The notes under the pieces: model-generated
What the model was told of the DNA's origin: nothing
Seen by the model: only the letters and a program-made list of their open reading frames with translations
Databases searched by the model: none
Shown here: piece after piece, positions 3,450 to 62,223 of the stretch
Position numbering within the stretch: the stretch's first letter is position 1
How the letters are laid out: every line of letters begins with the position of its first letter
NCBI GenBank assembly: GCA_000091205.1
Contig: AP006485.2
Source of the DNA: Cyanidioschyzon merolae
Taxonomy: Eukaryota
Direction: 5' to 3' (one strand)
DNA: 64,000 nt
Program-made: the position numbers and the translations under genes

Positions 3450-4154
3450 GAACCCCGGTTAGACTTTTCGAGTGTATACCATAGAAAAATGGATCACTGT
3501 TGTGAGGTCATTGTAGTTGACGCGTGAACGCGTTCGTGCAACGCTCGGTGCGACTCCACCAGTATCTGCGTCCGTCTATGTGTGTTCGTGTGTATCAGGG
3601 CATATGTTTTTCAACAAGTTCTGCGCACTGCTTTACGACGCACATCAACGCCTGCGAAAAGCGTACACCATACCGTCGATACCGGGACAACGCGCTCAAC
3701 CGCTGCGTCCGTCACTGACACTAGACGTTGAGCCGCGCTCTCAGCTCTCCAGGCATTCATCTGCCGTATTCATGTTGCTGAGACTCCAAGAACTGTAGAC
3801 CTAGCATGACAGTAAATGTTCACGTGCAGAGAGATGAGAAACTGCAGAGAAATACGAACCTTTCATATGTAGATATTAGGGATTGTGTAGCCTGCACAGC
3901 ATATCAAGCTTGTACTGCTCATCTCTACACATCCCATACAAAGCAAAACGAGACCCGGCTCCAGTCTTATATGCCAAATACCTCCTTTCCCGCACCTGCA
4001 ATACCTTGTCAGTTCCATGCGAGTCTCCCATTCAAGAACGTCAAGACGAGAGCCTTGTTGCTACGAAGGTGCCGCGAACACTGCGGCGTCGACCGCATCC
4101 AGAACAATCAGGTTTTCCGTTTAGTTGTTGCCCGAGCGACTGGATGTTTTGGAC
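3450..4154. repeat. 705-bp dispersed repeat, copy 1 (about 98-99% identical to 34454..35157), abutting the 5' end of the EngA-like gene.
   Basis: Direct comparison of the two blocks shows only a handful of substitutions. Six-frame ORFs 3517..3798 / 34521..34802 and 3806.. / 34810.. are near-identical in translation. Confidence 0.9.
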
Positions 4155-9075: not shown

Positions 9076-11526
9076 CGTCTCGTACATGGCGCCGTCTTTC
9101 CCCGCATCATACTTGTAGAGCTCTTAGTGGAGACGAATATTGCGCTGTGCATGCGAATGCACGAATCCTCGGACAGTGAATCGCTCTCGGTACATCGCGT
9201 TCGTGCCTGATGATGCCTTGCATTCTGCGAAGGGCGTTCCAAGCGCAACGTTCACGATGCCGCGGCGTTTCACCAGCTGCACTGGAGGATGCTCTCGTGC
9301 AGCACTTGCTCGCACCTGCTTAACGACTAGAGACGCGTAAGCGCGAAGAACATATCGGGGGCGTCACGTTTTCCTCTGGAGCATGGAGATGGATTTCCTC
9401 CTTTTCGAATTCGGGTCAATACAACGTGTGCATGCACTGGAACCCATTGGATGATTGGATGTTGAAGGCACAGCATCCAGGAATGGAACGATCCCCAAGA
9501 TGCTCATCGTCATCTCTGAATCGAATTCGAAGCGGATGTACTCAGGGTTTCAGGGGCACGTACGGCTCGTGACGGCTGCGGTAACTTGGGCAACCCAAAA
9601 TGGTTTGGATAGTGACGTCCTCGTCATACGTCCTCGATAGAGTGCACGCTCGGAAGCGTCGGATGCATCTCGATAGCACTGGGGTTCGATGAAGCAAACC
9701 TCAGCTGATCCTTTCTGAGACTCGCCGTCCTGGATCCGCTGCGTTTCTTGTACGAAGTATCAGACTGAGACCCGGGCGTTTTGATCTCCAGAATATCGAT
9801 TCTGCAGCGTTGCAATGGCACATCAACTTTACCTCGATGCTGGTGCATCCGTTTGCGCTGCTGACATCCGCGACGTCCGACTCTGACGATTGCCAAGGCC
9901 AGCGTGCGGAGATACGATCGCTGTCGACCTGGCGGATGCTTAGGGAATGCATCTGATGTATGGATATTTTGGAGCAGCCTTGATCGCTTGGATCACGGCA
10001 ATAGACTCTGAAATATTGAATCGTGGAGCACTAGTATCGTCTACGCTTTTCGAAGGGAAATCGTTCGCGGTGTGCATAGAGAATCCGTTCCAGCCCTGCT
10101 GGATGGCTGAAACACCCCATGCGAGCGCCTCGCTCCTGGCGAGGATCCCATGTCCCGTTCCATGGGAACTGATGGTTTTGCATCCGTATTATGCCGTGCT
10201 TCAGCGAAATAGCCACACTGAGTATGAAACGATTCCTTCGAAAGTTCACTTGATTCAAAGACGACGTACGCACGGGAAGCTCGAGACATTTTTCCCGACG
10301 CTGATAGGGGCATTCGAGTCTCGCTTGAGAGAGCGCTTGGGCGTATGGTTGCTGGTTGAGCTTCACCAAACCAAGTGTCTCAGATTCGATGACCTAATCA
10401 TGTGATGTTCGATCAGCGCACCGTACTTGACCTTGTGTATACGACTCTGTTTCACACTGTTCTTCTCGATTGGTTTCGTCGTCCAGCTATGCGTATGATA
10501 CGTACCTGCCGTCCTGAGTGCATTGATGGGAATCGTGCAGAATCGATTCCTGCTTGCGTTGTCCGCGCTCGTCGACGAGGCAAGACCGCAGCCCTGACGC
10601 GCCATGAAACGCTCAGCATCGTGGGGTACTCGCGAACGACGAGACTGGTCAGGTGTTTGTTCTTGAAAATCCTTGAACAAGTTGGCGAATGCAGGCATCC
10701 CGTCTTTATACAAACGAAACCGTCGGTGATCCCAGCGCGGTCTCGAGTACTCGTAATCGAGATTGTTTGCTCGATCCATTAGGACGTTTGTGTACTCTCT
10801 ACATGAAGCGTAGAAAGCATCCTCTTCAGTGGATTGGGTACTCCGAGTGCAGAGAAGCGCGCGGACGCCACCATTCTAAACGTTTGCATGCATCCTGGCG
10901 TCCAGCATGCCCGACTCTCGATCATACCGATGCCTAGAAAACGTGGGTACCTCCATCCGCTTTCCATTAAGGCCGTCGGCTCCGCCCTCTTAATTTAGAA
11001 GCGCACTGACGGCGGTGATGTGTTTGAATACGGAAACCACGCACACTAGATCGTCTAGCTCTTCACCTATCTTGAGCGATCGACCGTGAGCTTCGTTACT
11101 CGACTCGCGCCAGGTTTCCGTGGAGTGCTTCCACACGGATGTTCACTCGGTCGCTATCGACGCTGTGAATTTCTTTCGTTTTCATCCTTACAGACGAGAG
11201 ACGTTGGGCGAGCTCCGTCGATTCTCTACTCCGCGACGTTGGAGTGAAGTAGGACTGCTAGTAGAGACAAGTCGAAGCGTTCTGAGAAGGCTATCCAGCA
11301 CAATACCCATGTGCCTACGGCGACATCGTGAGCTTTCAGCTCAGTTTTGTTTCGCCCCTGATGCGATGTATAGCAGGAGATCGAAATCTCGATGCAATGC
11401 GCTGTATAGATCGTCGACGAATTGCCTGTAGGATACGTCTTGTCCTGGACAGTGCGAGGTGGACTGCAATCCTCCTTCACTTCAGTCATAATGAAGTACT
11501 CTGATGGTTGCGGAACATCAAAAGGA

Positions 11527-12700
11527 ACAAGTAGATGTGTTCCGTGCCAAAAACAGGTATATTCAAAGAGTGGTTGCGGTCAACAGTAGAGAATGACCGG
11601 TTGATCACCCTAGGGAAAGCAAAACCGTCAAATGTAGTCGCCACGGACGTCCCTGTTCCTCAACAGCATGTTCGTGTGGTCGTGAAGACACCGGGATACA
11701 GTCGCGAAAAAGTCCTAGATTATGCATGGCCATCTTGCACCGAAATCGCAACGACAGCCTTCCTGGAGCGTCGCTATAGGTATGAAGCACAGTGACTTTG
11801 ATTTGTTTTTTTTTCTGTGGGTGAGACTTCCTTTCGAAGATATGGTCGGAGCGTATGCCGGCATTCGCGGAACAGGGCGCCCATTGTATGTAAATTCGAT
11901 TTAGATGAGAACGAGGATATCACGATCAGTTCGAGTTGCAGTGGATTCACTCTGCGGCCTCAGATTCGCTCGAGGAGAAAGCTCGTACAACGACACGAAC
12001 AGCTTTGTCGAATTCTTGAAGACTTTTCCGGACGTTCGATGACGTCCTTCTATGTTACAACCTGGCGTTTGACCATTCTTCTTGCGTTCACGCTTTTGCC
12101 GATTCAAACGGGAATAGAGCAGCTTTTCATTCCACTGTACGCTCCGTAATCCAGGCCCAGTGAAAGAGCGTTCTCCATCTTGATACGGTATGATCGCTTC
12201 ATTGGGCGAATCGCTGGAGTGTTCAGCACGCGGTGACACACCAGGCCATATGCCGTTGTTCTTCCGCGAGTCCATCCACCGCAGAGAGCGTCCTCACCTG
12301 GGTGCAGAGACAGGTGCATTCATTTTCAAAAAATATAAGGGATGAACTGAGATGTACACGTCCGGAGGCCGATATAGAGGGAAGGCAGCGGACCGCTTCG
12401 GCGATCGAAAATCACGGAGAGCCAACAGAGCACCAAATGGTACAGAAGGCGCGAGTTCCTGGAATCCTTGCATTGGCGAATCCAACCAGCGGCAAGAAAT
12501 GCAAAGAGCTTTCCATCCGAGACATGAACGCTACTTTCAATATTAGGAGATCTGCGACGCTGAAGACGATACCCGAGGTGCTTACGCAATGTAATTTTGC
12601 AGGGCAGCATCTCAGGCTCGAAGTGTACAAGGAGACGCTGAAGCTGATAGCAGGCGGCCGGATATAAATACACTGGGAGGCGTCTGCGGGCGGAGATTAA
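11527..12700 (+). mobile_element. Internally deleted, decayed copy of a TnpB/Fanzor-like transposon: N-terminal fragment plus RuvC-III end plus conserved 3' tail.
   Basis: ORF 11535..11795 is homologous to ORF 48240..48608 and to the end of the 45089..44415 ORF (FLERRYRYEAQ / FLERRDRYEAQ / FLDRELERKAE). ORF 12233..12667 carries a degenerate RuvC-III (ELSIRDMNATFNIRR; compare NRDFNAAINIRR at 43030). The 3' non-coding block 12553..12700 is conserved with the other two copies. Confidence 0.6.
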
Positions 12701-15104
12701 TTTACCAAATAATCGAAAAATTTTTTGTTTTCTTTACATGCACGTCCATGGGCATTTATCTAGTATACAGGACGCAAATCGAATAATCGTTTGGAGAGGC
12801 TAGCGCGCTCGCACACGAGCAGGGAATCCGCTTTAGCAGTGGCGTGCTCTGTTCAGCACAATACGTCGCTGAAAAAGGTGCAAGGCAGGCAGGCATCGTA
12901 TTCCAACTATCCTCCTGGAAACGCGTCCGCCAGTGCGAGGCTCAGAGCAACGACATGAGCCTGGGCGATCCGGAGCGACGCTCGCACGCGTTGCTAACCC
13001 GCTTCCGAACTCGCCACCAAGCGGTTTCTTTTCTGCTGCTAGGAGCTCATGAATTGGCTGCATTGACTCGCGAAGAATCCCATCCGTCACTCGTATTTTT
13101 TTTCTGAGCCAGAACAGTGAGGCTTTTTTTTTGGCGTATAACGTCCCTGAGGGTACCTCTCGTGAAGCGCTCGAGATTAACGTGTGTATGGTTTCTGATT
13201 TTGGTTTGAAGTTTCCTTAACGTATGCGCTGTAGAGCCCAGGTCGCCGAGATGCCACTGCGACTCGTCACAGGATTCTAACACATGCGTGTGCAAATGAC
13301 AGGTGCAACGATACGGAAGTATTGCATCTTCTGTACCGTGTATCCGTTGTGTGGTTGCATATGGGTTTCGTCGACAAATTCCGGAGCAATGTGGACAGCT
13401 GGCTGCCCTGTCGCCAGCATTCCTGCTTAAACTTGCTTGACGAGGTGCGTCATAGAGAGAGAGAGAGGCGAAACCAGGATCCCTCTAATAAGAAGCTACG
13501 TGATCCACCACGGTATTCTGTACGTTTCGGTACCGCGGATGCGAGCGACTCTGCTATTGAACCGTGATCGCAGTGAAAACGTTTCACAACAGAAATGACG
13601 ACTTCGACTGGATTGCACCGGACAGAACAGAACGGCACGAAGAGAAGCTCCGCGCTAGTCACAGCTGCGTTCTCCTCGACGGTTTTTGAGTGGTGGAAAA
13701 CGGCGGTGTCTAAACACAGGACATGTTTGTTTGGAAATGAGGAGCCACGAAGAGTGTTTCGACGGAGGTTAGGGTGCTTAACGCACTCGTCGCTTTGGCG
13801 GCGTTCAGGCGACCACGCAACGGACTCGTCGTCTGGGCAGGTACTGTTGCGATATTTGTTTGTCTCGTCTTTCCGAACAGCATTTTTGCCCTCTATGAGT
13901 TCCTATACGCAGGTCTGTTATTTGTCCCGAAACAAGTCTCACCGTTTGAGACTACGACCCGTTCAAACTGTAACAGTGTTCGCATTTCAATACAATATAG
14001 AGAGTAAGTGGGTCTGCGCGCGATAGTCTCACATTGAAGCATACCGGTTTCTTTGTCCATCGGTGTCCGGTTATCACCTTTCGTATCAGCGGGGCGGACA
14101 ATTCAGATCCTATGGTTCCTTTGGTAGGATTTCTCAGAGGTCGCTTGTAGTGAAATGAATAGACAAGAGGAAACAGTCCCGTAGAAAGAGTTCAATGAAC
14201 TCTGTTTCGGATGCACGATGAGAAGGATATGGACGACGAGAAATATGGTCGATCCGCGTGATGAAAGCAGACTTACGGACATCTACAAGTAGGGACGTTT
14301 TTTACACGCTCATAGTGACAGTGTAACATGTTTCCACCACCTTTCTCCAATCTGCAGGATACATTCCTGCTGTCGAACAACTAAGAGAAAAACAATCATA
14401 AACAAAAGGGCATGCAAATATATGTGCTCCAAAAATCGCTGCTCCTATAATAGGGCGTCTCGTGTGGACGCCAGCAAGTGCCTTCTCTCGATCGCTGTTC
14501 TTGAGCAACAGCGTATCGATGTAGCGAACTAGATTCTCCCAGATGCACAGCCTCTGGTGATGACCAGGAAGTAGACCTCGGGCATTAGCCCAGGATGCAG
14601 GACCCGACCAACCCCAGTGCAGCGTACCCGGATCAAGTCGGCGCTCGATCAATGCTCCAGTGCCCGGTACACCAGCTCGTGATCGCGCTTGAAACTTTGG
14701 AACGCAGATTCCATCCTGGGATCCGCGGAATGATTTTACCCGATCTGGTGTCCATGGGTGATACTAGCTACATCCAGGTACGTGCACGAACAATCGCCGC
14801 GACTCCAGATGCAGATATCGAAAGGCAAATCCTTCGTTATAGCAGACGCACCCTTGCAAGCACATGTACGAGTATATCTATATGCGCAGGCGCGCTCATT
14901 CGTCCGAGCATAAACATGCACGCCTGAATATACGCACGTACGTCCATGTATACATCCATAGACTTTCAAAGGAGGCAGAGGGCATGAACAGTGGTCTTTT
15001 TGTGAAATAACATCTCTGCATACCTGCAAGGCAGGCGGTAGTGATCCCCCACCCCGCCCCCGCCCCCCAACCCCGAGAAACATTAACATGCCCTGCCGCA
15101 GCGC

Positions 15105-31822: not shown

Positions 31823-34445
31823 TGGAATGCAGAAGGCAGCACAACCTTTTTGGTTTTTCTCGAAGATATTTAAAATACAGAATTGGAACATTTTGATTCG
31901 AGAACGATCATGGTAGGGTTTTATGTGTTCATGGCTCGCTTGAGACATAAAAGCCTCATACAAGTCAGCCATTCGACGGTTAGCGGGTGGATAAACCACC
32001 CTTCTCGTCGTCGTCGTTACCCATTACGTCGTGCATCCAGACCAGAACCCATCGACTGCGATCTGCACGACTGTCTACTCGTCGATCCGTCCCACTACAT
32101 ACCTCCTGTGAGCAAAGATATCAGAGGAGACACAGCGTGTGAAGTTTCGCGCATTTGGCACAAACAATGGCGAGCAGACACGAGTGCACGAAGGAGAAAG
32201 CACGCTCCTGGAGGATATCGTCAGGCGTTGAAGGACACACGATCGATTTCGAACTGAAACGCGAAAGCCTTGAAGTGGAGCGGCGGATGCTCGTCTCAGT
32301 CGACGAGACGTTATTCAGGACAAATGGTCAAACGATGTGTGCGTACTCAATGTGGAGCAAACTGTTGTGTATGAATAAACGGAAACCGAGCGTGACGTCA
32401 ACGCGAGCTCTCGGGGCAGTTCAGTGGAGCGCTTTCCCACATAAATCACAGAATCGATACGCTCGTTCAACACAGCATCCTTCGTTGAACCACGCTTCGT
32501 GGCTTCTCCGTCCCGCATTCCTCTGTCCAGCTGCTGCACGGCAACTTCGCTTTCCGCCACTCACAAGCGGTCAACAAGTGCGCTGCTGAGACTGGCGACG
32601 AGCTGCCCTTCGTGACAACCTCTGTTCCCTCGTTCAGTGCAGTCGAATGCCTCCGCTCTGTTCGCAGAGGCAACGTCTGCGCTCTCGGATCCATAGACGG
32701 GTCATTCGCGTGCACGTTGCGGTTCGTTCATAAACCGTTATTTCGACAGCCGTGCTCGCTCTCCTCAATCGCTAATCTGCTCTGTTGGTTCTGTGTTCGA
32801 GAACCGGGGCGAACGGAAGGCCGCGCTTCGGTCCATGAGCGCGCACACCGTGGAAAAGAGGAGCAAGCGCCAAGTAGGCAGCAGTGGATACATATATCTT
32901 TAGGAAAGGTACGCTCCGGTCCCGTCGTGCACCCCGTGCGCCCGAGTCCTGATGAAAACTAACCGATATGGCGCATCGTGATGATACACATGCCAACCTG
33001 CCAAATGGAGGACTCGCACTGGAAACCACCAGGCAGGCAAAGAAGCAAGAATGCTCCGGAATACGGGGACGAGCAGCGCCTGGAAGGAAAAATATCGGTG
33101 CAGCTATTGCTCAGTCTGGAACGGTCATCATAGCCTCGCTACCGAAACACACATCAACCGGGAGAATCACCCAAAAAGGAAGATACAGGGCGCCCTAAGG
33201 GGATGCGTAGCTTCTGACTCGAGCAGGGCTCGCTCCGCTTCCTTCGCTTTGACGTACCCTGTCAGGGTACGGCGCGTCGGCATCACCGGTGCAGCGCTGT
33301 CAGCTGTTCCAAAGCGTCTTGAAGGTTTCGATCAAATCGTCGTGCGACAACGTAACGGACACTCAGGGCAGACGATGCGAACCGTCCTGATTGTAGGATC
33401 AGTGATGTGTATACACGTTTCACAGAGGACCTCGAAGTTTCGGTGCGCCTGTCGTCGCTTCGAAGACCTACAGCGTCGGTGCCAATACGTACCAACGTGA
33501 ATCCCCGAAAGCCGAAATCATAGGCAGGCTCGTGTCGGGCGCTTCATGAGGCGCTGTATGTGCGTATTCGCGCCTCAGCTCACGGGCCCAGACTCGTGGC
33601 GACTAGTTCAAATGAATCTGCGTAACAGATACGCTACGAGTTTCCAGGCGGCGCATGTGAACCGTCTTTGGCAAGAGTACATGGGAGCGCGCCGGGGTTC
33701 ACAACGGTGTCTATCGTAAAGAGGCAGGAAACTTGCATTCGGCAACGTGTTGAATGCGTTGCAAGAAAAGGAATGGACTTGAACGTCGCGTTGTTTGATC
33801 GTAGCGTATTGGGCTGAGCGTGCTGTAGGACGCGAAAAGCGCACCCCTGTTCACTCGACAAGAGCGTACACCGAGTGCAGGAATCTGTGCTGCACGGTAT
33901 CTATCGAATCGTTCAGAACGACATACGAACACCGAGAGTGGGCGTGCACTGTGAAACTGGTAGAGAGGAAAACGCTGAAACACGGCCGAATGCACTTCAT
34001 GGTGTCCAGTACGCTGAGCGAACTTCACATACCGAAGCACTCGATGATCAGAGTCGTTGCTGTAGCGTACATCCAGCAGCCGTCGTAGGGAGACGCTCAA
34101 GCACATGCTGCACCGAGACTCTAATGCATCGATGAACCTACGGAAATGTCTTGCGCTTCCAGAATGTCTACCGGGTTGATGTCGAGCGAACGTTCAAGTA
34201 ACTGTTTCGAACTCGGACGAGGGAACGTCTCGAAACAATGAAGCCTTTGGGTGTGAAAAAATGTGGCAAGGGTAGCTGGCATTGGATTCTCGCCTGAAGC
34301 AAGGCACTGGTATGGTACATTTCGCAATGCAAAGTGACTGAAGCGCCCTATGTCTATATAGGTACCGGTACCAGTGTTCCTGTGTCATTGGTGAGCAGTA
34401 AAGATGATCCAGTATTCGATACTTTGAGCATACTCCATTTCGATG
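31823..34445. repeat. 2,623-bp direct repeat, copy A (about 98-99% identical to 59601..62223; constant offset 27,778 bp).
   Basis: All six-frame ORFs in 31.8-34.4 kb recur at +27,778 with 0-2 aa differences (for example 31883 / 59661, 32612 / 60390, 33051 / 60829, 33875 / 61653). Boundaries read from sequence (tggaatgcag ... catttcgatg). Confidence 0.92.
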
Positions 34446-34453
34446 TTTCCGGG

Positions 34454-35157
34454 GAACCCCGGTTAGACTTTTCGAGTGTATACCATAGAAAAATGGATCA
34501 CTGTTGTGAGGTCATTGTAGTTGACTCGTGAACGCGTTCGTGCAACGCTCGGTGCGACTCCACCAGTATCTGCGTCCGTCTATGTGTGTTCGTGTGTATC
34601 AGGGCATATGTTTTTCAACAAGTTCTGCGCATTGCTTTGCGACGCACATCAACGCCTGCGAAAAGCGTACACCATACCGTCGATACCGGGACTACGCGCT
34701 CAACCGCTGCGTCCGTCACTGCCACTAGACGTTGAGCCGCGCTCTCAGCTCTCCAGGCATTCATCTGCCGTATTCATGTTGCTGAGACTCCAAGAACTGT
34801 AGACCTAGCATGACAGTAAATGTTCACGTGCAGAGAGATGAGAAACTGCAGAGAAATACGAACCTTTCATATGTAGATATTAGGGATTGTGTAGCCTGCA
34901 CAGCATATCAAGCTTGTACTGCTCATCTCTACACATCCCATACAAAGCAAAACGAGACCCGGCTCCAGTCTTATATGCCAAATACCTCCTTTCCCGCACC
35001 TGCAATACCTTGTCAGTTCCATGCGAGTCTCCCATTCAAGAACGTCAAGACGAGAGCCTTGTTGCTACGAAGGTGCCGCGAACACTGCGGCGTCGACCGC
35101 ATCCAGAACACTCAGGTTTTCCGTTTAGTTGTTGCCCGAGCGACTGGATGTTTTGGA
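34454..35157. repeat. 705-bp dispersed repeat, copy 2. It lies 8 bp after the end of 2.6-kb repeat A and abuts the 5' end of the USP25/28-like gene.
   Basis: See copy 1. Identity resumes at gaaccccggttagac and ends at ...gactggatgttttggac in both copies. Confidence 0.9.
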
Positions 35158-35169
35158 CTTTTCCCGCAG

Positions 35170-41963: not shown

Positions 41964-42701
41964 TTAAATCAGTTTCTTTGCCCTGAAGAAAGCGTTGAGG
42001 TAGCGTGCCTGCCAGATACCTGCTCCGATCATAACCAAGCAAGAGATGATGCTGTACCAGAGCACGCGCCGCGACACCGACTCGTTGATTGAGCGCATAG
42101 CCTCTTCACGAGCCCGCATATGCTCCAGTTCTTCCAGAATGGACTTCACTTCATCTTCCATGCGCCGCAGGGCGATTTCCAGGTTATCAAGGTGCTCTAC
42201 CTTGGCTACTGTTGAGTAGTCCTTCGCCGCGGCTCCCGTACTGACGTGGAGCGTAATTTTGCGTTTCGTCTCGGGCCCGTCACCGTTTTTTCCCGAAAGG
42301 CAAAACTGGTAGTTGTAGGTAGGCCATACGTCTCCGTAGTTTTCGTCGAACTCTTGGTGCTCTTTGTCCGCCTCTCCAACGTTACCGTGCGGGTGCTGAC
42401 CGCGCTGCGGTCCCGCTGGACTCTCGAACGTGAACTTTCCCTGATCGATGTTGTCTTTTTGAAAGATTACCTTACCGTCAGGTCCAGTGACCACCAGCTC
42501 GACATCAAGTTTACCTGGGCCGGCAGTGACGAGGTACTCGCCTAGAACGCGGGTCCCCGCGGTCACGTCCTCGCTGAAACACTTCTTTTGGCCACTTTTC
42601 AGGAAAAACTGAAGCGCGCCCGTCACCGGAACCCGAGCTAATACGCCCAGCACGAGCAAACACCAAACCAGAGTACACAGTCTACGCGAAACCGACGACA
42701 T
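41964..42701 (-). CDS. p24/emp24 (TMED) cargo receptor: GOLD domain, coiled coil, one TM, short tail. Start called at the signal peptide M (42701); the track ORF extends to 42929.
   Basis: Signal peptide MSSVSRRLCTLVWCLLVLGVLA. GOLD-domain pattern (FFLKSGQKKCFSEDV...YLVTAGP...VELVVTGPDGKVIF). Coiled coil LEIALRRMEDEVKSILEELEHMRAREE. TM plus C-terminal FFRAKKLI. Confidence 0.82.
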   Translation of the reverse strand: MSSVSRRLCTLVWCLLVLGVLARVPVTGALQFFLKSGQKKCFSEDVTAGTRVLGEYLVTAGPGKLDVELVVTGPDGKVIFQKDNIDQGKFTFESPAGPQRGQHPHGNVGEADKEHQEFDENYGDVWPTYNYQFCLSGKNGDGPETKRKITLHVSTGAAAKDYSTVAKVEHLDNLEIALRRMEDEVKSILEELEHMRAREEAMRSINESVSRRVLWYSIISCLVMIGAGIWQARYLNAFFRAKKLI

Positions 42702-42884
42702 TCTTGCCACGAGCGCTCGGATCCAGGCCTTGAGTAACGTCTGAGATGCGAGCACTGCCCGTTGTGTGATTGTTTGCGTGCGAGGGTGCGTTTGTGTCGG
42801 TATACCACCGGTAGAGCGGGCGCACAGTCGAACGATGCCACCGGTGTACAGAAGCGGCGAGAAACCCGCTTTCGAGGAAACGTC

Positions 42885-45089
42885 TCCAAGTGATGTGCAG
42901 ACGCCCCCTCGTCTTTCTCGGCGGGCCATCTTCTACTGATTCCAAGTTTTTCTCATATAGTTCGACTTGGGAAGGTTGTCCAACAACGTTCCCTCCTGTG
43001 GACTCTGGAGGTCTTTTCTCCATTACCAATCATCTCCGTATATTGATTGCGGCGTTAAAGTCTCGGTTAAAAACCTCCATCCGTTTCTTGCGATTGGAAG
43101 TTGTACTCACTAATGCAAATAGCCCCTGCACTTTTGCCCTCCTTTCCATTTGCTCCTCCGTCAGCGGTCCGTACTTTGCTATATCCTCATGGCTCCTCTG
43201 GCACTTTTCCATCTCCACCCTCTGAAGTGTACACCCCAGCTCGTGGTGTGTATAGGACGTTCGGAACTCATCTATCGGTATTATAACAAAACGCCGTGCA
43301 CACTCCTTGCACGTTCTTGTCGTTGGAGCTGGTGTACACCCTTTTTGGGTCTTCCATCGCCCTGCTCCGTATGCCACTACCAGCCTCTGATTTTCATCCT
43401 CCTTCAGGGCACTCAACTGATTGAAAAAATTCGCGAGCGCCCGCTGCTTTCCACAATACAAATTCATTCGCAAACGAGCCCACCGGGGCTTTGCATACTC
43501 CTCGCACAGCGTATCTCAATGAGGAACGCGAACTTCCATGAATTTTCGAAAAGCTGCAAAGTCCGCTCCTCGGCTCGTCACCTCGCTCAAAGCTTCCAGG
43601 TGATCCTTCATTCCTACATTCCATGCAGCAATTTCCTTCCTTGCATTCATTGTTCCCGGTTCTCGATAGTATATTGCTCTCGAGAACCTCAAAAAAGACG
43701 CATGTCTTTCTGACGTAAGTTACCATCAGCACTATCTTCCGTACGCTTCGGTGCTGCGATGGTTATGATATTCGTATTCCCAGGGTCCGCGCCGACGACA
43801 AAGTCGTTATCCTGCACTTTCTGCGTGGCAAAATCCTCCTCCTTCTCATCTTCATGCATCGCCACGCCAACGACAAAGTCGTTAGCTTGCACCTCCTGCG
43901 TCGCAGCACCCGCCTCCTTCTCATCTTCATCGTTCGTCACGCCAAAGACAAGGTCGTTATCATGCACCTCCTGCGTCGCAGCATCCTCCTCTTTGTTTTC
44001 TTCATGCTTCGCCGCGTGAACGACAAGATCGTTATCCTCTACCTCCTGCATCGCTGGATCCGACTCCTTCTCATCTTCATGCTTCGTAACGGGCGAAGCC
44101 GAGGGCGGAACTGGACGATTTTTCTTCAAGCGCCGATATTGTACACACGTGGCTACTCCATCGGTTTCGATCATCCCAGTGAATACCTTTTGTTTGCTCA
44201 CTTCAGATGTTTGAAATCGAAGATATTCTTCCAGTACGTCTCACGATTTTCGCCGGAGAACTCCTCCTTGTTAGCATTGAACACCGGACTGATCTCCCTC
44301 ATGATGCCGTAAAGGATTCTGGAGTCCATACTCACAAAATGTGACTTGATGTTGCACATTGGAACCACGTTGAAGCGCTTCCCCACTAGGGCAGCCTTCC
44401 ATCTCTCCCACGCTTCATTTTTCCCCACTCAGCTTCACCTCTGCCTTGCGTTCGAGTTCACGGTCCAAAAACACGAAATACCGCAGGACGAGGCGATAGT
44501 ATCTTTCCTTATCTTCTCTCAACTCTGATATCTTGTCTGTTGGATTCGCTAACTCCAAGACTGCGCGGTGCTCTTGTATAGCCGCACGGATTACAGAAGC
44601 TTCATTTGTGCCCCTGCGTGACGCCTTCTCTCCGACGAATTCGATCTCATCTTCATGCTTGCGATCGTTCGTGATGCCGTTGATAATCGCCCATTTTCCG
44701 TTACGAGAGATGCCCGGGTACAGTGCAAACACGGCGCGTATCATGAAATGTTCGAGGTTCATTCTGAAATGGTTCTTCAGATTCGTCAGGTACTTCATCG
44801 CCCCATATGTGTAGATATCCGCGTCACCACTGTATCGGGTACCCTCGAGGAGGAATTCCGCGAAGTTTTCGTGGAGGACTTTCACCCGCTTATTTTCCCT
44901 CCGCGCTTCCTCTATGCCAAGCATCAAGTGACGAAAAAATGTGTTGTCGAAAAACTCGTCCGGAAGCTCGACCGTTTCCATGTTCGTCACGTAGCGATAC
45001 ATCTCCCTCACCAAATGCGTCGGTCCTGAAGAAGCCTTTATCATACTCATGGAGTACGACTCGAGACGGTTTTTGATGGCGTCCCGCAA
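42885..45089 (-). mobile_element. Near-full-length TnpB/Fanzor-like (OMEGA-type RNA-guided nuclease) transposon copy. The coding region is broken into 5 consecutive overlapping reading frames (pseudogene, or possibly short introns).
   Basis: Minus-strand ORFs 45089..44415, 44428..44198, 44201..43689, 43732..43394 and 43473..43030 are contiguous and overlap by a few to 80 bp. ORF-c ends with a RuvC-I-like VVGADPGNTNIITIAAP. The last ORF has the TnpB hallmark ...FVIIPIDEFRTSYTHHELGC...(degenerate Zn finger)...NRDFNAAINIRR* (RuvC-III DxNAAxNI). The 3' non-coding tail 42885..43027 is conserved with the two truncated copies. Confidence 0.65.
43791..44090. repeat. 75-bp tandem repeat x4 (encodes 25-aa acidic units) inside the Fanzor-like ORF, just N-terminal to the RuvC-I motif.
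   Basis: Units start at 43791, 43866, 43941 and 44016 (gcc(g/a)a(c/a)gacaa(a/g)gtcgtta...cttcatg...). Translated on minus strand as ..HEDEKEEDFATQKVQDNDFVVG.. x4. Confidence 0.9.
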
Positions 45090-45642
45090 CTTTTCCTTCT
45101 ACGGATCCTTGATATATTTAAGAACACAGGCTTTCACCACTATCTCGTTGTACAGTTGCCTTTCTTGCCGCCTTCGACGTAGAACCTCGCCCCCTTTTGA
45201 TTCCTCATCACTTCCTGTTCCTTTTCGCTCCGCCATGTTTATCCTTCTTTTCCGACGGCCGGCGATATCGGCCCTCCGGGATCCTCCACTTCCATTTCCA
45301 TGACTTTCCTTTTTTTATTTTTTTTGAAAACGAACGCTCTTTGAACGCTTCTGTTATATACTTCGAAAAAACACTTGAATATACTCAATTGAGGGTCGGA
45401 ATAGGATGGAACAAAAAACCTATACTTTGCTACGACCTCAACGCGAATACAACTTTTACAGTAGAATAGCACGCCAGTGATCAGGATCACTGTTCCCCTC
45501 AGGAGCGACCAGAGCGTCGTGTCTCGTGCCCGCCGGATCTGCCAGGTGCGCGTGCACGCGCAGCGGCTGACATGCGCCCCGCCGCCGATCAGGAGATTGC
45601 TTCTGGATATGTCTATCTCAAAGCGTGATAACCTGTTGCTGA

Positions 45643-47529
45643 ATGAACGCTCACCACAATGACTGGACTCCCGATAAAGTATTGGATACAGTGAGGGAAT
45701 ATGTAGACGCTGGAGCACTGTCGGAGTGTGCGGCACTGGACTTGCTGGAGCGTTTGCCGTTACCGCTGCTGGGCTGGACACTGGAGGAGTACGCGGTGCG
45801 GGCGTCGCTCGAGGCTTCAGACAGCGACGCGGTACCTTCTGACAACATATTTGATTCCATGCAGGTATTAACGAAAACAATGGAGAAACTGGTCAAGCTC
45901 TCTGCAACAAGTGCCCGAGTGCGTCACGTCGTACCTATAGAGCAGGTGCTCCAGCTCATCCACCTCGGTCTGAGCAGCCGGTACCCGCTGGTACGCACAG
46001 CTGCGCTCCGTCTGCTTTGTCTCCTTCTTGAACGGAATGACTTGCCTGAAGCGTTTTGTCAGCAAGTTGCAGACACTATTATCGAACGTTTTGAAAGTAC
46101 GAACGAGCTTCGTCCGGAGATAGAGGCCGCACAAGCGCCAGGTCCAGAAGTGAACGCTCCCAGCACAACTGCACAGCACGCCAGCGATATCCTGTCACTG
46201 GTGCTGCTGAGCTTCCGTGATGATCCATCCACCGAAGCTGCGGGAATTTGTGAAAAAATCCTGAAGAACCTGGTACAGCTGAAGCCGTTCCGCGGCGCAG
46301 TTGTGCTCTTCAGCGAAGCACGAGGCGCGCAAATCCTCGTACAGGAGATGCTCTCGGGTGCAGCGGGTGCGGTTGCGCATATCCGAGCCTTGAACTTGCT
46401 GCTTGAGATCTGCGACTACTCGTCTGTTGCAGAGATTGCCGCACGTCGGCTGTTGCCAACCGTGCTTGTAGCCAAAATCGCAGCTCCTGTTCGTTTGGAT
46501 GAGGACTTGCTACTCCGCTTGAACTTGCTGGATGTGCTTGGGGCTTTTATGCAACGCAGTGCAATAGCAGCCGAGTTGCTCGACCAAATTTCGGTATTCG
46601 ATGTGCTGCTACGCCAACACCTTGCCTATTTGTTGGCGCCAGACGAGCCTGCCTCGAGCGACTTGGCGGAACGCTGGTTTATTTGGATGTGTGGGATTCT
46701 GAGGTTCGTGCGCACCAGTGCCGGCTCCAGCCGTTGCGCCTTCCACGCTTGGATGAACGCCAGTCTCGTAGAGATTCTTGGGCGCTTTCTCTTGGTTCAC
46801 GTGGTAGATGGCGAGACTGAGACAGCACACTGGTCCGTACAACTTGATCAAGTTCGTCGGACGACGCTGCTGGTGCATCTGATCTCCGCGGTAGGCGCTC
46901 TGGGGCTCTGTGAACGCGGGATGGACGTGCTGCTTGCGGACGTTGACACCTTGAAACTAACGCTTCGTTTCATTCAAACGGCGAGCGTGTGCGATATTCG
47001 AGTGGCCTCCTTGCGCGCTTTGAGTGTGTTCCTGGCAGGTCTCGACGAGCCGCTTTCATCAGCAGCCGTCTCAGGGTACGGAGCCGCCGAATCCGACCTC
47101 GAATTTCGGCAGCAAAGGGTGCTGCATCTGTTCACTGATGCGATCAGGGATGCGGATCCCGTCAAGGCGTTCACGAATGCACTGCCCATTGTCCTGGACT
47201 GTGCACGGCATCCTTCGGAAGAAGAGCGGCTGGCTGCTGCGGCGGTATTCGCTGCGCTAAGTCTGTCGAGAATCGGAGTTGTCGCGTTGGCTAGTATGGC
47301 GGGCTTTGTGGAATGGCTCTGCGACCCGACGGACGCTTCTCTCGAGGTCCTGGAAGCTAAGATGCGCGTTGCACGACGCCTAGTTGAGCTGCACGCCAGT
47401 GACGGAGAAGTCGCATTCGGTGCGCTGAAATGGTCACGTATTGTCGCCGTGGTCTCGAATGGAAGCGATCCTCGAGCTGTGCGTCAGCGGCGCGTGCCTG
47501 CTGTAAACATTGCCACTCTGAATCGTTAG
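45643..47529 (+). CDS. Hypothetical ARM/HEAT-repeat-like protein (628 aa). Function unknown.
   Basis: Long uninterrupted ORF with Leu/Ala-rich helical-repeat character throughout. No diagnostic motif recognised. Confidence 0.45.
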   Translation: MNAHHNDWTPDKVLDTVREYVDAGALSECAALDLLERLPLPLLGWTLEEYAVRASLEASDSDAVPSDNIFDSMQVLTKTMEKLVKLSATSARVRHVVPIEQVLQLIHLGLSSRYPLVRTAALRLLCLLLERNDLPEAFCQQVADTIIERFESTNELRPEIEAAQAPGPEVNAPSTTAQHASDILSLVLLSFRDDPSTEAAGICEKILKNLVQLKPFRGAVVLFSEARGAQILVQEMLSGAAGAVAHIRALNLLLEICDYSSVAEIAARRLLPTVLVAKIAAPVRLDEDLLLRLNLLDVLGAFMQRSAIAAELLDQISVFDVLLRQHLAYLLAPDEPASSDLAERWFIWMCGILRFVRTSAGSSRCAFHAWMNASLVEILGRFLLVHVVDGETETAHWSVQLDQVRRTTLLVHLISAVGALGLCERGMDVLLADVDTLKLTLRFIQTASVCDIRVASLRALSVFLAGLDEPLSSAAVSGYGAAESDLEFRQQRVLHLFTDAIRDADPVKAFTNALPIVLDCARHPSEEERLAAAAVFAALSLSRIGVVALASMAGFVEWLCDPTDASLEVLEAKMRVARRLVELHASDGEVAFGALKWSRIVAVVSNGSDPRAVRQRRVPAVNIATLNR

Positions 47530-48229
47530 ACCAAGGGCAGCATCGGCGATCGACACAGCGCTCTGCACGTTGAGCGCGACTCGTGTGCTTGCCAATGACC
47601 GGGCTTGGAGTCGCAGGGGAACCTGCTCGTCAGCTATCAGGTGCCGTGGACCTGGTCGGGATCGGTAGCATCTGCAGTCGTGCGGTCCAAGCGTCAGACA
47701 GCACCGTGCTGACAACAAACGCCTACTTGGCGCGCTTGTACGACAGGACGCTGTGCAGAAGCATGTTTGGTGTCGTTTTCGACGATCTGAGGATCGATGC
47801 AAGGTGCGTCTTCGAGGAAGGCATGCTCGGACGGCAAAACTTGGGTACCAAGGGCACTTCGATGCCTGTTCGCATCGATCGCTGGTATGCTGCGTATCTG
47901 GTAGAGGCGAATACCGTACATAGAGGTATGCGCTGGTGCGTCCGTTCACCGTCTCGATCCGCTGCTGGTACGCGGCTGCGTTAGAATTTCGAGTACCCGA
48001 CGCTGTTACGACGTAAAGGCGCTTCGGTTGATAGTCTTTCAACTCAATTTTGTTTCATCGCGGCTACGGTATATAGGAGGAGGACGAAATCACTAGGTAA
48101 TGTTCTGTATAGATTGTGGAGGAATTGCATACGGCATATGTATTCTTCACTGAACAATGCAATGATGATTGCATTGCACCTCGATGTCAATCATACCACT
48201 ATACGCAGATGCTGAACGAGCACTGAAAG

Positions 48230-49395
48230 AAACAAGTATATGCGCTCCGGGCCGAAACCTGATATTCTCAAAGCCTGCCTGCAATCAGTGATAGAAAACG
48301 ACCAGTTGATCAATTTACGGGAAGCAAATGCGTCCATAGTAGCCACCACGGGCGTCTCTGTTTCGCAACAGCTTATTCGCGTGATCCTGAAAACACCGGG
48401 ATCCAATCGCAATAAAGTGCTAGTTCATTCACAGCCAGCTTCTACCGAAATCGCAGGCACGGTGTTCCTGGAACGTCGCGATCGGTATGAAGCACAGGAA
48501 CATCAGTTTGTTTTCTCACTCGATGAGACTTGCTTCAAACGAGACAATCGCAGCGTAGATGAATACTTGCTGAGCGGGAGCCCGTTGCTCGTACGCTCGA
48601 AATCGTAGAGAACGTCGACATCATCATCTGTTCTAGCTGCGGTGGATTCATTTGGCTGCCTCAGTTCCGCTGAAGAGAACACTCATGCAGCAGCGCCCTC
48701 TTTTTGTAGAGTCATTGAAGACTTGTCCCAGACGTCTGGTGAAGTCCTTCTATTGGACATAGTGGTATTTAGCCGTTCTGCTTCAGTTCGAGCATTTTTA
48801 GATTCTTTCGAGGGGTAGAGCTGGTTTCATTCCTTCTTCTCAACCATGGTTCATCCCCATAGAAGAAGAGTTTTGCGTCCTGAATCGTCACGATCGCTCC
48901 ACCGGGCGAATTGATGAAGCGTTCAGCACATGGTGACCAACCGGGGCACATTTGGTCTTTATTCCGCATGTGCTGCTCGATGCGGGAAGGTCGTCATCTC
49001 AGGCTATAAACAAATGCGTTCATTTTCGAAAAATCTAAGGGATGAGCTGGAATATACACCCTAGGATGTTGAGTTGGAGCGAGGCCAGTGGAGCGTTTCG
49101 TCGACAGATCAGCACGAAGAGCTAACAGAGCACCCAATGGCACAGCGTACACGGCTTCGTGGTCTCCTTGTATCGATTAGTTCAACCAGTGGCAACAAAC
49201 ACATGGAGTTCACGAACCGAGACTTTAACGCTGCGATCAGTACAAGACGGTGTGCGATGCTAAAGACGATACCCGATTGGCAGACGCGATCTAACTTTGT
49301 GGAGCAGCCTCTTAGGCATAAAATAAACAACGAGAAAATGAAACCGATCGCAGACAGCCGGTCTAAACAGACTGGAAGGCGTCTTCGAGTGGATT
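48230..49395 (+). mobile_element. Second internally deleted, decayed copy of the TnpB/Fanzor-like transposon.
   Basis: ORF 48240..48608 is homologous to ORF 11535..11795 (about 55% aa). ORF 49074..49442 has MEFTNRDFNAAISTRR (RuvC-III). The 3' tail 49252..49395 is conserved with the 12553..12700 and 42885..43027 tails. Confidence 0.6.
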
Positions 49396-49795
49396 TTCAT
49401 CTACGCTCCATGGTTTTGAGGCATTCCTTTTTGTCTCACTGACGATGAGCCTAATCGAGAAGGAAATCAAGGCCAGTATCTGATATCGAAACTTGTTGCT
49501 GCCCAACAGATAGATTTAGGGTTCGTTCTTCTGTATCAGAAAACCTAGAGTGCGGCATCCGCGTATTCTGTATCCAGATATACTCACCCGCGAATAGCTG
49601 CCGCACTGCCGTGGCATTCGGGCGATATCTGTCTTTCAGACAACATTCTCGCTTCCACGCAAAGCCCCTGACGCACAGGCCGCGGGCAGCACAACCAGTA
49701 CCTGCAGAGAACATCGTGCAACGCTCCCCAGCGTTTGAAATCTGTCGAGGTTGCCGTGCTCTCGCTCCGATGAAAGCTCCAAACGCATGCAAAGC

Positions 49796-59600: not shown

Positions 59601-62223
59601 TGGAATGCAGAGGGCAGCACAACCTTTTTGGTTTTTCTCGAAGATATTTAAAATACAGAATTGGAACATTTTGATTCGAGAACGATCATGGTAGGGTTTT
59701 ATGTGTTCATGGCTCGCTTGAGACATAAAAGCCTCATACAAGTCAGCCATTCGACGGTTAGCGGGTGGATAAACCACCCTTCTCGTCGTCGTCGTTACCC
59801 ATTACGTCGTGCATCCAGACCAGAACCCATCGACTGCGATCTGCACGACTGTCTACTCGTCGATCCGTCCCACTACATACCTCCTCTGAGCAAAGATATC
59901 AGAGGAGACACAGCGTGTGAAGTTTCGCGCATTCGGCACAAACAATGACGAGCACACACGAGTGCACGAAGGAGAAAGCACGCTCCTGGAGGATATCGTC
60001 AAGCGTTGAAGGACACACGATCGATTTCGAACTGAAACGCGAAAGCCTTGAGGTGGAGCGGCGGATGCTCGTCTCAGTCGACGAGACGTTATTCAGGACA
60101 AATGGTCAAACGATGTGTGCGTACTCAATGTGGAGCAAACTGTTGTGTATGAATAAACGGAAACCGAGCGTGACGTCAACGCGAGCTCTCGGGGCAGTTC
60201 AGTGGAGCGCTTTCCCACATAAATCACAGAATCGATACGCTCGTTCAACACAGCATCCTTCGTTGAACCACGCTTCGTGGCTTCTCCGTCCCGCATTCCT
60301 CTGTCCAGCTGCTGCACGGCAACTTCGCTTTCCGCCACTCACAAGCGGTCAACAAGTGCGCTGCTGAGACTGGCGACGAGCTGCCCTTCGTGACAACCAC
60401 TGTTCCCTCGTTCAGTGCAGTCGAATGCCTCCGCTCTGTTCGCAGAGGCAACGTCTGCGCTCTCGGATCCATAGACGGGTCATTCGCGTGCACGATGCGG
60501 TTCGTTCATAAACCGTTATTTCGACAGCCGTGCTCGCTCTCCTCAACCGCTAATCTGCTCTGTTGGTTCTGTGTTCGAGAACCGGGGCGAACGGAAGGCC
60601 GCACTTCGGTCCATGAGCGCGCACACCGTGGAAAAGAGGAGCAAGCGCCAAGTAGGCAGCAGTGGATACATATATCTTTAGGAAAGGCACGCTCCGGTCC
60701 CGTCGTGCACCCCGTGCGCCCGAGTCCTGATGAAAACTAACCGATATGGCGCATCGTGATGATACACATGCCAACCTGCCAAATGGAGGACTCGCACTGG
60801 AAACCACCAGGCAGGCAAAGAAGCAAGAATGCTCCCGAATACGGGGACGAGCAGCGCCTGGAAGGAAAAATATCGGTGCAGCTATTGCTCAGTCTGGAAC
60901 GGTCATCATAGCCTCGCTACCGAAACACACATCAACCGGGAGAATCACCCAAAAAGGAAGATACAGGGCGCCCTAAGGGGATGCGTAGCTTCTGACTCGA
61001 GCAGGGCTCGCTCAGCTTCCTTCGCTTTGACGTACCCTGTCAGGGTACGGCGCGTCGGCATCACCGGTGCAGCGCTGTCAGCTGTTCCAAAGCGTCTTGA
61101 AGGTTTCGATCAAACCGTCGTGCGACAACGTAACGGACACTCAGGGCAGACGATGCGAACCGTCCTGATTGTAGGATCAGTGATGTGTATACACATTTCA
61201 CAGAGGACCTCGAAGTTTCGGTGCGCCTGTCGTCGCTTCGAAGACCTACAGCGTCGGTGCCAATACGTATCAACGTGAATCCCCGAAAGCCGAAATCATA
61301 GGCAGGCTCGTGTCGGGCGCTTCATGAGGCGCTGTATGTGCGTATTCGCGCCTCAGCTCACGGGCCCAGACTCGTGGCGACTAGTTCAAATGAATCTGCG
61401 TAACAGATACGCTACGAGTTTCCAGGCGGCGCATGTGAACCGTCTTTGGCAAGAGTACATGGGAGCGCGCCGGGGTTCACAACGGTGTCTATCGTAAAGA
61501 GGCAGGAAACTTGCATTCGGCAACGTGTTGAATGCGTTGCAAGACAAGGAATGGACTTGAACGTCGCGTTGTTTGATCGTAGCGTATTGGGCTGAGCGTG
61601 CTGTAGGACGCGAAAAGCGCACCCCTGTTCACTCGACAAGAGCGTACACCGAGTGCAGGAATCTATGCTGCACGGTATCTATCGAATCGTTCAGAACGAC
61701 ATACGAACACCGAGAGTGGGCGTGCACTGTGAAACTGGTAGAGAGGAAAACGCTGAAACACGGCTGAATGCACTTCATGGTGTCCAGTACGCTGAGCGAA
61801 CTTCACATACCGAGGCACTCGATGATCAGAGTCGTTGCTGTAGCGTACATCCAGCAGCCGTCGTAGGGAGACGCTCAAGCACATGCTGCACCGAGACTCT
61901 AATGCATCGATGAACCTACGGAAATGTCTTGCGCTTCCAGAATGTCTACCGGGTTGATGTCGAGCGAACGTTCAAGTAACTGTTTCGAACTCGGACGAGG
62001 GAACGTCTCGAAACAATGAAGCCTTTGGGTGAGAAAAAATGTGGCAAGGGTAGCTGGCATTGGATTCTCGCCTGAAGCAAGGCACTTGTATGGTACATTT
62101 CGCAAGGCAAAGTGACTGAAGCGCCCTATGTCTATATAGGTACCGGGACCAGTGTTCCTGTGTCATTGGTGAGCAGTAAAGATGATCCAGTATTCGATAC
62201 TTTGAGCATACTACATTTCGATG
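59601..62223. repeat. 2,623-bp direct repeat, copy B (partner of 31823..34445).
   Basis: See copy A. Downstream of copy B the 705-bp module is absent (sequence diverges right after catttcgatg). Confidence 0.92.

Follow-up and report, generated by a model that had tools for sequence, protein, structure and literature searches.

Conserved 3' tails of decayed Fanzor1-like copies in Cyanidioschyzon merolae: a probable coding end and a candidate right-end module beyond it

CMe-1A is a Fanzor1-encoding transposable element of the red alga Cyanidioschyzon merolae, for which Bao & Jurka 2013 (PMC3627910) give about 150 copies that are about 80% identical to a ~3-kb consensus, some of them intact, no terminal inverted repeats and an unknown transposon class. 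The published Fanzor/TnpB motif (Bao & Jurka 2013) includes a C4 zinc finger between the RuvC-II and RuvC-III motifs. Characterised Fanzor and TnpB systems encode their guide RNA at the 3' end of the nuclease open reading frame (ORF) or just past it (PMC10432273, PMC10530073), as the original prediction for the locus treated here had correctly stated, and these omega-RNAs often overlap the ORF end (PMC10530073). Non-coding ‘ghost’ loci have been described for Fanzor1 (Saito et al. 2023, PMC10432273), and in Fz1 omega-RNAs the first stem-loop (SL1) is conserved and the second (SL2) variable (Xu et al. 2024, PMC11423790). Here we examine 64,000 nucleotides (nt) of C. merolae DNA (contig AP006485.2, assembly GCA_000091205.1), referred to as the window, in which three Fanzor-like copies had been noticed. 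The interval 42885..43027 behind the RuvC-III codons of copy 3, together with its counterparts in copies 1 and 2, had been proposed to be a conserved non-coding tail, serving as candidate omega-RNA scaffold and right end.

Coding status and family identity of the tail interval

The flagged interval comprises 143 base pairs (bp), is homologous across the three copies and, when translated in the frame of the RuvC-III motif, gives the C-terminal ~48 residues of a Fanzor1 protein (…RRCAVLEKRPPELTRENFVGQPLKVELYEKKLEAVVGGRSKKTGRRLH…). The best joint explanation, in which we place high confidence, is that these 143 bp are the 3' coding end of dead Fanzor1 nuclease genes. The features on which this reading turns are the following.

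42885..43027 (-): flagged tail, approximately codons 733-780 of the 784-codon family ORF; LVMEKRPPESTGGNVVGQPSQVELYEKNLESVEDGPPRKTRGRLHIT in copy 3, AVLEKRPPELTRENFVGQPLKVELYEKKLEAVVGGRSKKTGRRLHVS in the consensus
43033..43068 (-): RuvC-III codons NRDFNAAINIRR; the family profile aligns them with NRD..A..N in PpFz1 and SpuFz1
43030..43032 (-): nonsense lesion, an in-frame TGA where homologs have the conserved Cys codon (TGT) of ...NIRRCAV...
42871..42873 (-): GAA replacing the family stop TAG; the stop is lost in copy 3 and the frame runs on
12551..12687 (+): copy 1 tail, coding; its TAA at 12665..12667 results from a 1-nt insertion near 12662 (alignment and tblastn)
49251..49386 (+): copy 2 tail, coding; the frame is open to a TGA at 49440..49442

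The copy 3 ORF at 43030..43473 ends …NRDFNAAINIRR-TGA and the next ORF in the same frame starts at the very next codon, the change of TGT to TGA being the only break between the tail frame and the RuvC-III ORF. Removal of the inserted base from copy 1 restored ...GGRYKYTGRRLR, and the copy 2 frame has no stop in the tail. All stops found within the tail or ahead of it are later pseudogene lesions, and the statement that part of the tail lies after the stop codon was not confirmed. A protein search with the copy 3 stretch, its stop masked, returned 224 homologs, many of which cover 100% of the query; many end …RRCAVLExRPPExTRENFVGQPLKVELYEKKLEAVVGGRSKKTGRRLHVxWRRxV and carry the Cys at the position of the copy 3 TGA. 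At the DNA level, 79 related loci were taken from hot-spring metagenomes. The majority consensus of 41 gene-spanning copies forms one uninterrupted 784-codon frame from MKKQVDD to WRRFV-TAG, which spans the whole interval in frame with RuvC-III and whose stop TAG falls 12 nt past 42885; the last 200 codons and the stop are intact in 9 of the 72 copies. The description of the tail as non-coding is thus incorrect, and its location within a longer coding region of intact family members is the very finding that the original prediction had named as speaking against its argument for an omega-RNA.

The similarity of the tails itself is real. A DNA profile built from 76 related 3' ends matched copy 3 at 43097..42822(-) with E=4.7e-80, copy 2 at 49186..49386(+) with E=3.2e-26 and copy 1 at 12486..12687(+) with E=2.8e-22. 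The claim that ~140 bp were kept in all three copies therefore stands at its coordinates, but for copy 3 the resemblance is weaker than had been claimed: in the 144 nt that follow the RuvC-III codons, copies 1 and 2 are 73% identical in nucleotides, and copy 3 is 49% identical to either of them. Copies 1 (11333..12705) and 2 (48036..49404) are 68% identical over 1.38 kb, and copy 3, located on the minus strand, is far more distant from both. Taken by itself, the 49% identity could suggest chance or low-complexity sequence as the source of the three-way similarity. We give this view practically no credence: 49% is well above the ~26% that we estimate for chance in this comparison, the profile E-values range from 1e-22 to 1e-80, tblastn alignments cross the tail in frame, the same motifs occur in hundreds of homologs, and a profile-profile alignment runs through the tail motif. 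We infer that the tail looks conserved through common descent and past selection on the protein.

Assignment of the gene family to Fanzor1 was based on profiles and motifs. The CMe protein profile retrieved 1191 relatives from a library of 1.84 billion proteins (E down to 1e-73), many of them 600-700 amino acids (aa) long and matching at their C-terminal end. In hhalign comparisons the CMe profile aligned to a profile of 76 full-length relatives with E=3.2e-74, through …RRCAVLE.RPPE.TR.NFVGQPL, and this 76-sequence profile matched solved Fanzor1 proteins in the PDB, namely PpFz1 of Parasitella parasitica (9cf0, E=4.7e-18), SpuFz1 of Spizellomyces punctatus (8gkh, E=2.7e-10) and GtFz1 of Guillardia theta (9cer, E=3.4e-5), which bears out the earlier assignment of the copies to the Fanzor type. 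Furthermore, a motif test that sought D (…G.DPG…), E (…DEFRTS…) and RD (…NRD.NAA.N…) found the RuvC motifs FVVGADPGNTN, IPVDEFRTSY and NRDFNAAINIRR in order in both the consensus and copy 3, aligning to the PpFz1 and SpuFz1 motifs via the family profile. Since the RP..L.R motif of the tail aligns to the last residues of the solved Fanzor1 proteins, the first ~25 tail residues formed, in the ancestral gene, the conserved end of the RuvC domain (RRCAVLE-RPPELTR, shared with the solved proteins), and the remaining ~30 residues formed a basic, lineage-specific extension (…GGRSKKTGRRLHVSWRRFV).

Several observations weigh against this coding reading or against parts of it. Upstream of the tail, third codon positions are conserved at 0.81 compared to 0.93 and 0.94 for first and second positions (p=7e-22), whereas inside the tail the codon-position signature is weak (0.856 versus 0.886 and 0.898, p=0.04), implying weaker protein constraint on the tail. 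Conservation of third positions is marginally higher in the tail than in the upstream part (0.856 versus 0.810, p=0.047), which is a hint only, and there could be some extra nucleotide-level constraint on the coding tail. Moreover, Fanzor1 membership is derived from profile-level homology and motifs because single-sequence searches gave no match and the structure model was unusable. Pfam scans found no significant family in the ORF pieces, the 784-aa consensus or ten distant full-length relatives, the only match being a non-significant one to Cas12f1-like_TNB with E=0.78. A phmmer search of the consensus and one relative against the PDB sequences returned nothing relevant, the 76-sequence profile being the only query that matched. 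An AlphaFold2 model from a 33-sequence alignment reached a mean predicted local distance difference test score of 37.6, too poor for use. No CxxC…CxxC was seen in the consensus between the [TS][TS] motif and RD (RTSYTHHELGCTLQRVEMEKCQRS…VRGLLALVSTT), and the C4 cysteines were not seen in the wider clade consensus either (DEFRTTK….VRGLLWC.ST).

On the coding reading, the interval is fit for annotation as Fanzor1 (CMe-1A-like) pseudogene sequence and not as non-coding RNA. It matters little in itself, as it would be the decayed coding end of a transposon gene family known since its publication in 2013. It also calls for caution, in that sequence common to decayed copies of an old transposon shows how far the mobile unit reached and where coding constraint once acted, not present function.

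Anatomy of the 3' ends and a candidate guide-RNA module

The original prediction had further taken the tail as the right end, with 42885 as its boundary. Comparison of the flanks moved this boundary outwards. By BLAST and profiles, homology of copy 3 to ~90 family members runs past the stop position for a further ~60-80 nt to ~42826-42822, and the right boundary is ~80 nt beyond the flagged end in copy 3, where it was relocated to ~42806, and ~55 nt beyond it in copies 1 and 2. All three alignments stop directly behind GGCGTCT[GT]C, since it is at this core that two different types of 3' end part.

42897..42905 (-): core GGCGTCTGC, within codons G-R-L; last block common to the three copies and first bases of the copy-3-type 3' module
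42873..42911 (-): predicted hairpin over the last codons; copy 3 CGAGGGGGCGTCT ... AGACGTTTCCTCG with 13 pairs, consensus GAGGCGTCT/AGACGTTTT
42857..42869 (-): small hairpin after the stop position; consensus GGCGNG-loop-CNCGCC, copy 3 GCGGG-TTT-CTCGC
42847..42856 (-): linker, consensus CACTACTGTA; best-conserved part of the trailer (0.89 at trailer positions 11-20)
42806..42846 (-): terminal imperfect palindrome CACCGGTGG...CTACCGGTG, with a CAC start and a GTG end
12688..12745 (+): copy 1, second 3' end type; A/T-rich and unrelated to the copy-3 trailer
49387..49445 (+): copy 2, second 3' end type (DNA alignment and ORF list)

The copy-3 3' module, ~105 nt from 42905 to ~42806, is made up of the last 11 codons, the mutated stop and a trailer of ~65 nt; its overlap with the flagged interval is limited to the last ~20 nt of the latter. 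After TAG the consensus reads GGCGCGTTTGTCGCC-ACTACTGTAC-ACCGCCGG-CGTCGTTCGACTTTCGAAAGGCG-TTCGT, behind which conservation is at background. The terminal palindrome lies ~5 nt from the end of homology; its sequence and length vary among copies, yet it is nearly always hairpin-forming. For 10 of 44 copies the uninterrupted stem anchored at CAC exceeds in length that of 95% of shuffles, and stems reach up to 19 pairs; in the copy-3 orthologue L002 the anchored stem has 9 pairs, a length attained in 0 of 200 shuffles. The second, A/T-rich end type extends ~55 nt after the GGCGTCTGC core and is common to copies 1 and 2 and three related copies elsewhere. By our own reading, the protein frame of copy 2 and of the related copy L067 goes ~19 codons into it and terminates with TGA at the equivalent place. 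An element ending at GGCGTCTGC was considered and rejected, as copy 3 and ~90 relatives continue beyond it and copies 1 and 2 continue with their own common end. The anatomy of the 3' end is thus laid out as core, stop, two hairpins and terminal palindrome, and the copy-3-type module from core to palindrome would constitute the functional right end.

An omega-RNA gene would be expected to be non-coding, to lie at or beyond the 3' end of the ORF and to extend to the right end. The interval 42885..43027 does not have this position because it is coding and ends ~80 nt short of the right end, whereas the adjacent module 42905..~42806 does. A role as candidate omega-RNA and right end is plausible only for this ~105-nt module, which makes a better candidate than the flagged interval, and it is in this relocated form, starting at GGCGTCTGC (42905), that the guide-RNA hypothesis plausibly survives. 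Folding thermodynamics, with folds better than those of shuffled sequence, and analogy are what point to the module. The sense strand of the 110-nt module folds 6.5 kcal/mol better than the antisense strand, with this direction in 39 of 45 copies, compared to a difference of 1.5 kcal/mol in the adjacent coding control (paired p=6e-5); the G+T-rich composition contributes to this advantage of the sense strand.

The folding and covariation check that had been proposed gave a divided result. The consensus of tail and trailer (224 nt) folds better than shuffles (z=-3.06), as do copy 2 (z=-2.83) and copy 3 (z=-2.04), with copy 1 at z=+1.06. Three structures were specified by hand: a last-codon helix, a small post-stop hairpin, and long-range pairing of the coding tail with the trailer. 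In these helices 80-87% of cells were paired across copies versus 33-68% with the partners slid, values equal to those of column shuffles. Against the omega-RNA role stand the absence of covariation above shuffles for these structures, the failure of RNAalifold to predict any pairs on 51 aligned 3' ends, folding of the trailer alone no better than shuffles (z=0.15), and the lack of an Rfam match: none reached the gathering score in the whole window, and at permissive thresholds 42700..43150 gave only a chance-level snoRNA match (E=3.6). Individually, the last-codon hairpin had ~84% of cells paired over 51 copies and the small post-stop hairpin 77%, both with covariation no higher than shuffles. 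The covariation test is low in power, since once inserted the copies of a single transposon family decay neutrally, and subfamily clustering yielded essentially one star-like cluster (38 of 72), hence no extra power for compensatory changes.

The same folding data bear on a wider scaffold, starting well inside the coding tail (43027..42885) and running through the trailer, in which case the interval would be both coding and scaffold. In its favour are the z-score of tail plus trailer, long-range helices that pair coding GCAGTAGT/GGTGGC with trailer ACTACTGT/GTCGCC and have 87% of cells paired in the 51 copies, the slight excess of third-position conservation in the tail, and the frequent overlap of omega-RNAs with the ORF end (PMC10530073). 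However, shuffled controls do equally well in paired fraction and covariation (75/500 and 112/500), the structure comes from that very consensus, and copy 1 does not fold better than shuffles. Moreover, copies 1 and 2 share the coding tail yet carry a different 3' end, and a module found without its gene starts only at GCGTCTGC, not further upstream. We therefore regard this wider scaffold as improbable.

This solo module, from core to palindrome, occurs at one locus, in three strains, without an adjacent homologous ORF, and the copy begins only at GCGTCTGC. The module was also found following a Fanzor ORF with only 58% identity to the CMe-1A consensus, and that module is 84% identical to the solo copy. 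At both of these independent loci another CMe-1A element, with its complete 5' extension, follows 15-25 nt downstream of the module.

L038:941-1047, L004:961-1026, L078:1216-1278 and L077/L058 ~1171-1272: modules standing alone or linked to a foreign ORF

It is possible that the module is present at both ends of full-length elements, as terminal direct repeats, or that elements inserted behind an existing right end. A more specific proposal, which we advance only tentatively, is that the ~105-nt unit (42905 to ~42806) is the omega-RNA gene and right end of CMe-1A elements and behaves as an exchangeable module. If this pattern were true, the unit would follow ORFs of different Fanzor1 lineages, an alternative A/T-rich module would replace it after the same 9-nt core, and its occurrence alone, 15-25 nt before the complete 5' ends of other elements, would suggest either that modules are swapped at the core or that insertion takes place just behind a right end already present.

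The solo and foreign-linked modules also speak to the notion that the trailer is nothing more than a 3' untranslated region with the termination signal for the Fanzor mRNA, carried inside the mobile unit. A T-rich stretch (GGCGTTTGT) after the hairpins would suit such a signal, and transposon copies share sequence by descent regardless of function. We nevertheless consider it unlikely, as the module exists alone without an ORF and as its similarity between lineages, at 84%, is far above the 58% of the ORF next to it.

A right end that acts as DNA has models in the subterminal hairpins of IS200/IS605 elements and in the 3' hairpin of Helitrons. The 3' module might likewise have no guide-RNA role, its hairpins being recognised on single- or double-stranded DNA by a transposase acting in trans. 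The variable terminal palindrome ~5 nt from the end of homology and the recurrence of the module just upstream of complete 5' ends at two independent loci are in line with this, as is the description of the elements in PMC3627910 as lacking terminal inverted repeats and being of unknown class. Many stem positions, however, are G-T pairs, therefore favouring RNA; folding is clearly better in sense than in antisense, albeit with the contribution of G+T-rich composition; and no candidate transposase was identified in this analysis. Recognition at the DNA level is accordingly a possibility to which we give limited weight.

Copy 3, its surroundings and other relics in the window

The flagged interval is the end of a longer relic, delimited as follows.

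42874..45301 (-): copy 3 gene of CMe-1A type, full-length but disrupted, in at least six ORF pieces (tblastn aa 1-37, 50-523 and 506-784)
42806..45555 (-): approximate extent of the copy-3 element, from the point on the left where similarity to related loci begins to the end of the terminal palindrome on the right

Copy 3 is 80.6% identical to the consensus protein over aa 506-784 (43710..42874) and 65% over aa 50-523 by tblastn, and its tail is 82% identical at the nucleotide level; it thus shows the ~80% identity, ~3 kb length and C. merolae origin of CMe-1A. Copies 1 and 2 do not, their tails being 60-61% identical in nucleotides and their aligned C-terminal regions 37-41% identical in protein. 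Judged by these identities, copy 3 is assigned to CMe-1A, and copies 1 and 2 are a related lineage, ~40% identical in protein and sister to CMe-1A proper. The copy 3 gene contains a 75-bp tandem repeat at 43787-44086 (-), corresponding to consensus aa ~395-475, which encodes acidic units (…KEADPATQEVEDNDLVV…) and repeats sequence before the RuvC-I motif DNDFVVGADPG. The repeat predates the decay of copy 3 because it is also present in the family consensus.

Several ORFs in the window, including CMC065C, SRP54, CMC074C and the manganese transporter, are identical to proteins of chromosome 3 of strain 10D. Copy 3 is located between Tmp21 (BAM79011, minus strand, start near 42701) and CMC074C (BAM79012), and since these accessions are consecutive, the space between the two genes appears to contain no annotated gene. 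Within 42701-42870 (-), the Tmp21 start codon follows the copy-3 trailer and right end in the same orientation, only ~105-170 nt downstream of them, and the end of the element may now be part of the Tmp21 upstream region. An empty-site allele of the insertion was not found in contigs encoding the neighbouring Tmp21 gene, as 6 of 6 related strains carry, just upstream of Tmp21, ORF fragments equal in size to those of the copy-3 relic; the flank comparison called for originally thus moved the right boundary but did not yield an empty site in six strains. CMC074C (45643-47529, +; 628 aa) falls into the same 90%-identity cluster as CMQ418C on another chromosome, which suggests a recent segmental duplication beside copy 3.

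The count of three Fanzor-like copies was too low: tblastn with the 784-aa consensus detected at least six Fanzor1-like relics in the window. A fourth, at 10297..11022(-), is head-to-head with copy 1, matches aa 486-729 at 33% identity (E=5e-28) and contains stops; its sequence past the RuvC-III motif is no longer tail-like. Two more, at 33651-34154 (+) and 61429-61932 (+), show 33% identity (E~1e-13) and a RuvC-III-like motif HRDSNASMNLRKC, the tblastn matches covering 33651..34052 and 61429..61830. Both are part of a 2.6-kb duplication that is 99% identical (31823-34445 versus 59601-62223). In addition, a 705-bp direct repeat, likewise 99% identical, connects 3450-4154 with 34454-35158, its second copy directly following the first 2.6-kb duplicate.

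Comparison with described systems

Copy 3 and its relatives agree with CMe-1A as described in PMC3627910 in organism, length of ~3 kb, ~80% identity, lack of terminal inverted repeats, a single Fanzor1 ORF and a 5' part common to another repeat. The sections of that paper used here describe no 3' module or omega-RNA for the family, and copies 1 and 2 differ from it by another 3' end and by their 37-41% protein identity to the consensus. Compared to TnpB of IS200/IS605 elements, CMe-1A represents a eukaryotic Fanzor1 lineage whose protein has ~780 aa, a TnpA was not identified for it, and the canonical C4 zinc-finger cysteines are not visible in the CMe clade consensus; in both cases, however, the 3' end of a RuvC nuclease gene and a hairpin-bearing right end would template the guide RNA.

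The solved Fanzor1 systems SpuFz1 and PpFz1 are set apart from CMe-1A by the absence of a terminal inverted repeat in the latter, by its first hairpin of 5-6 pairs instead of 7, and by a trailer without comparable sequence similarity and without covariation. They share with it the protein family. Furthermore, the ~65-nt trailer of CMe-1A, in which a conserved linker joins a small, likewise conserved hairpin to a terminal one that varies, resembles the organisation reported in the literature, and the non-coding ‘ghost’ loci of those systems may have a counterpart here in one solo module. By analogy with SpuFz1 and PpFz1, the module would template the omega-RNA scaffold and the guide would start a few nucleotides after the palindrome. 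The 3' anatomy described above offers a concrete candidate for a red-alga Fanzor1 guide RNA.

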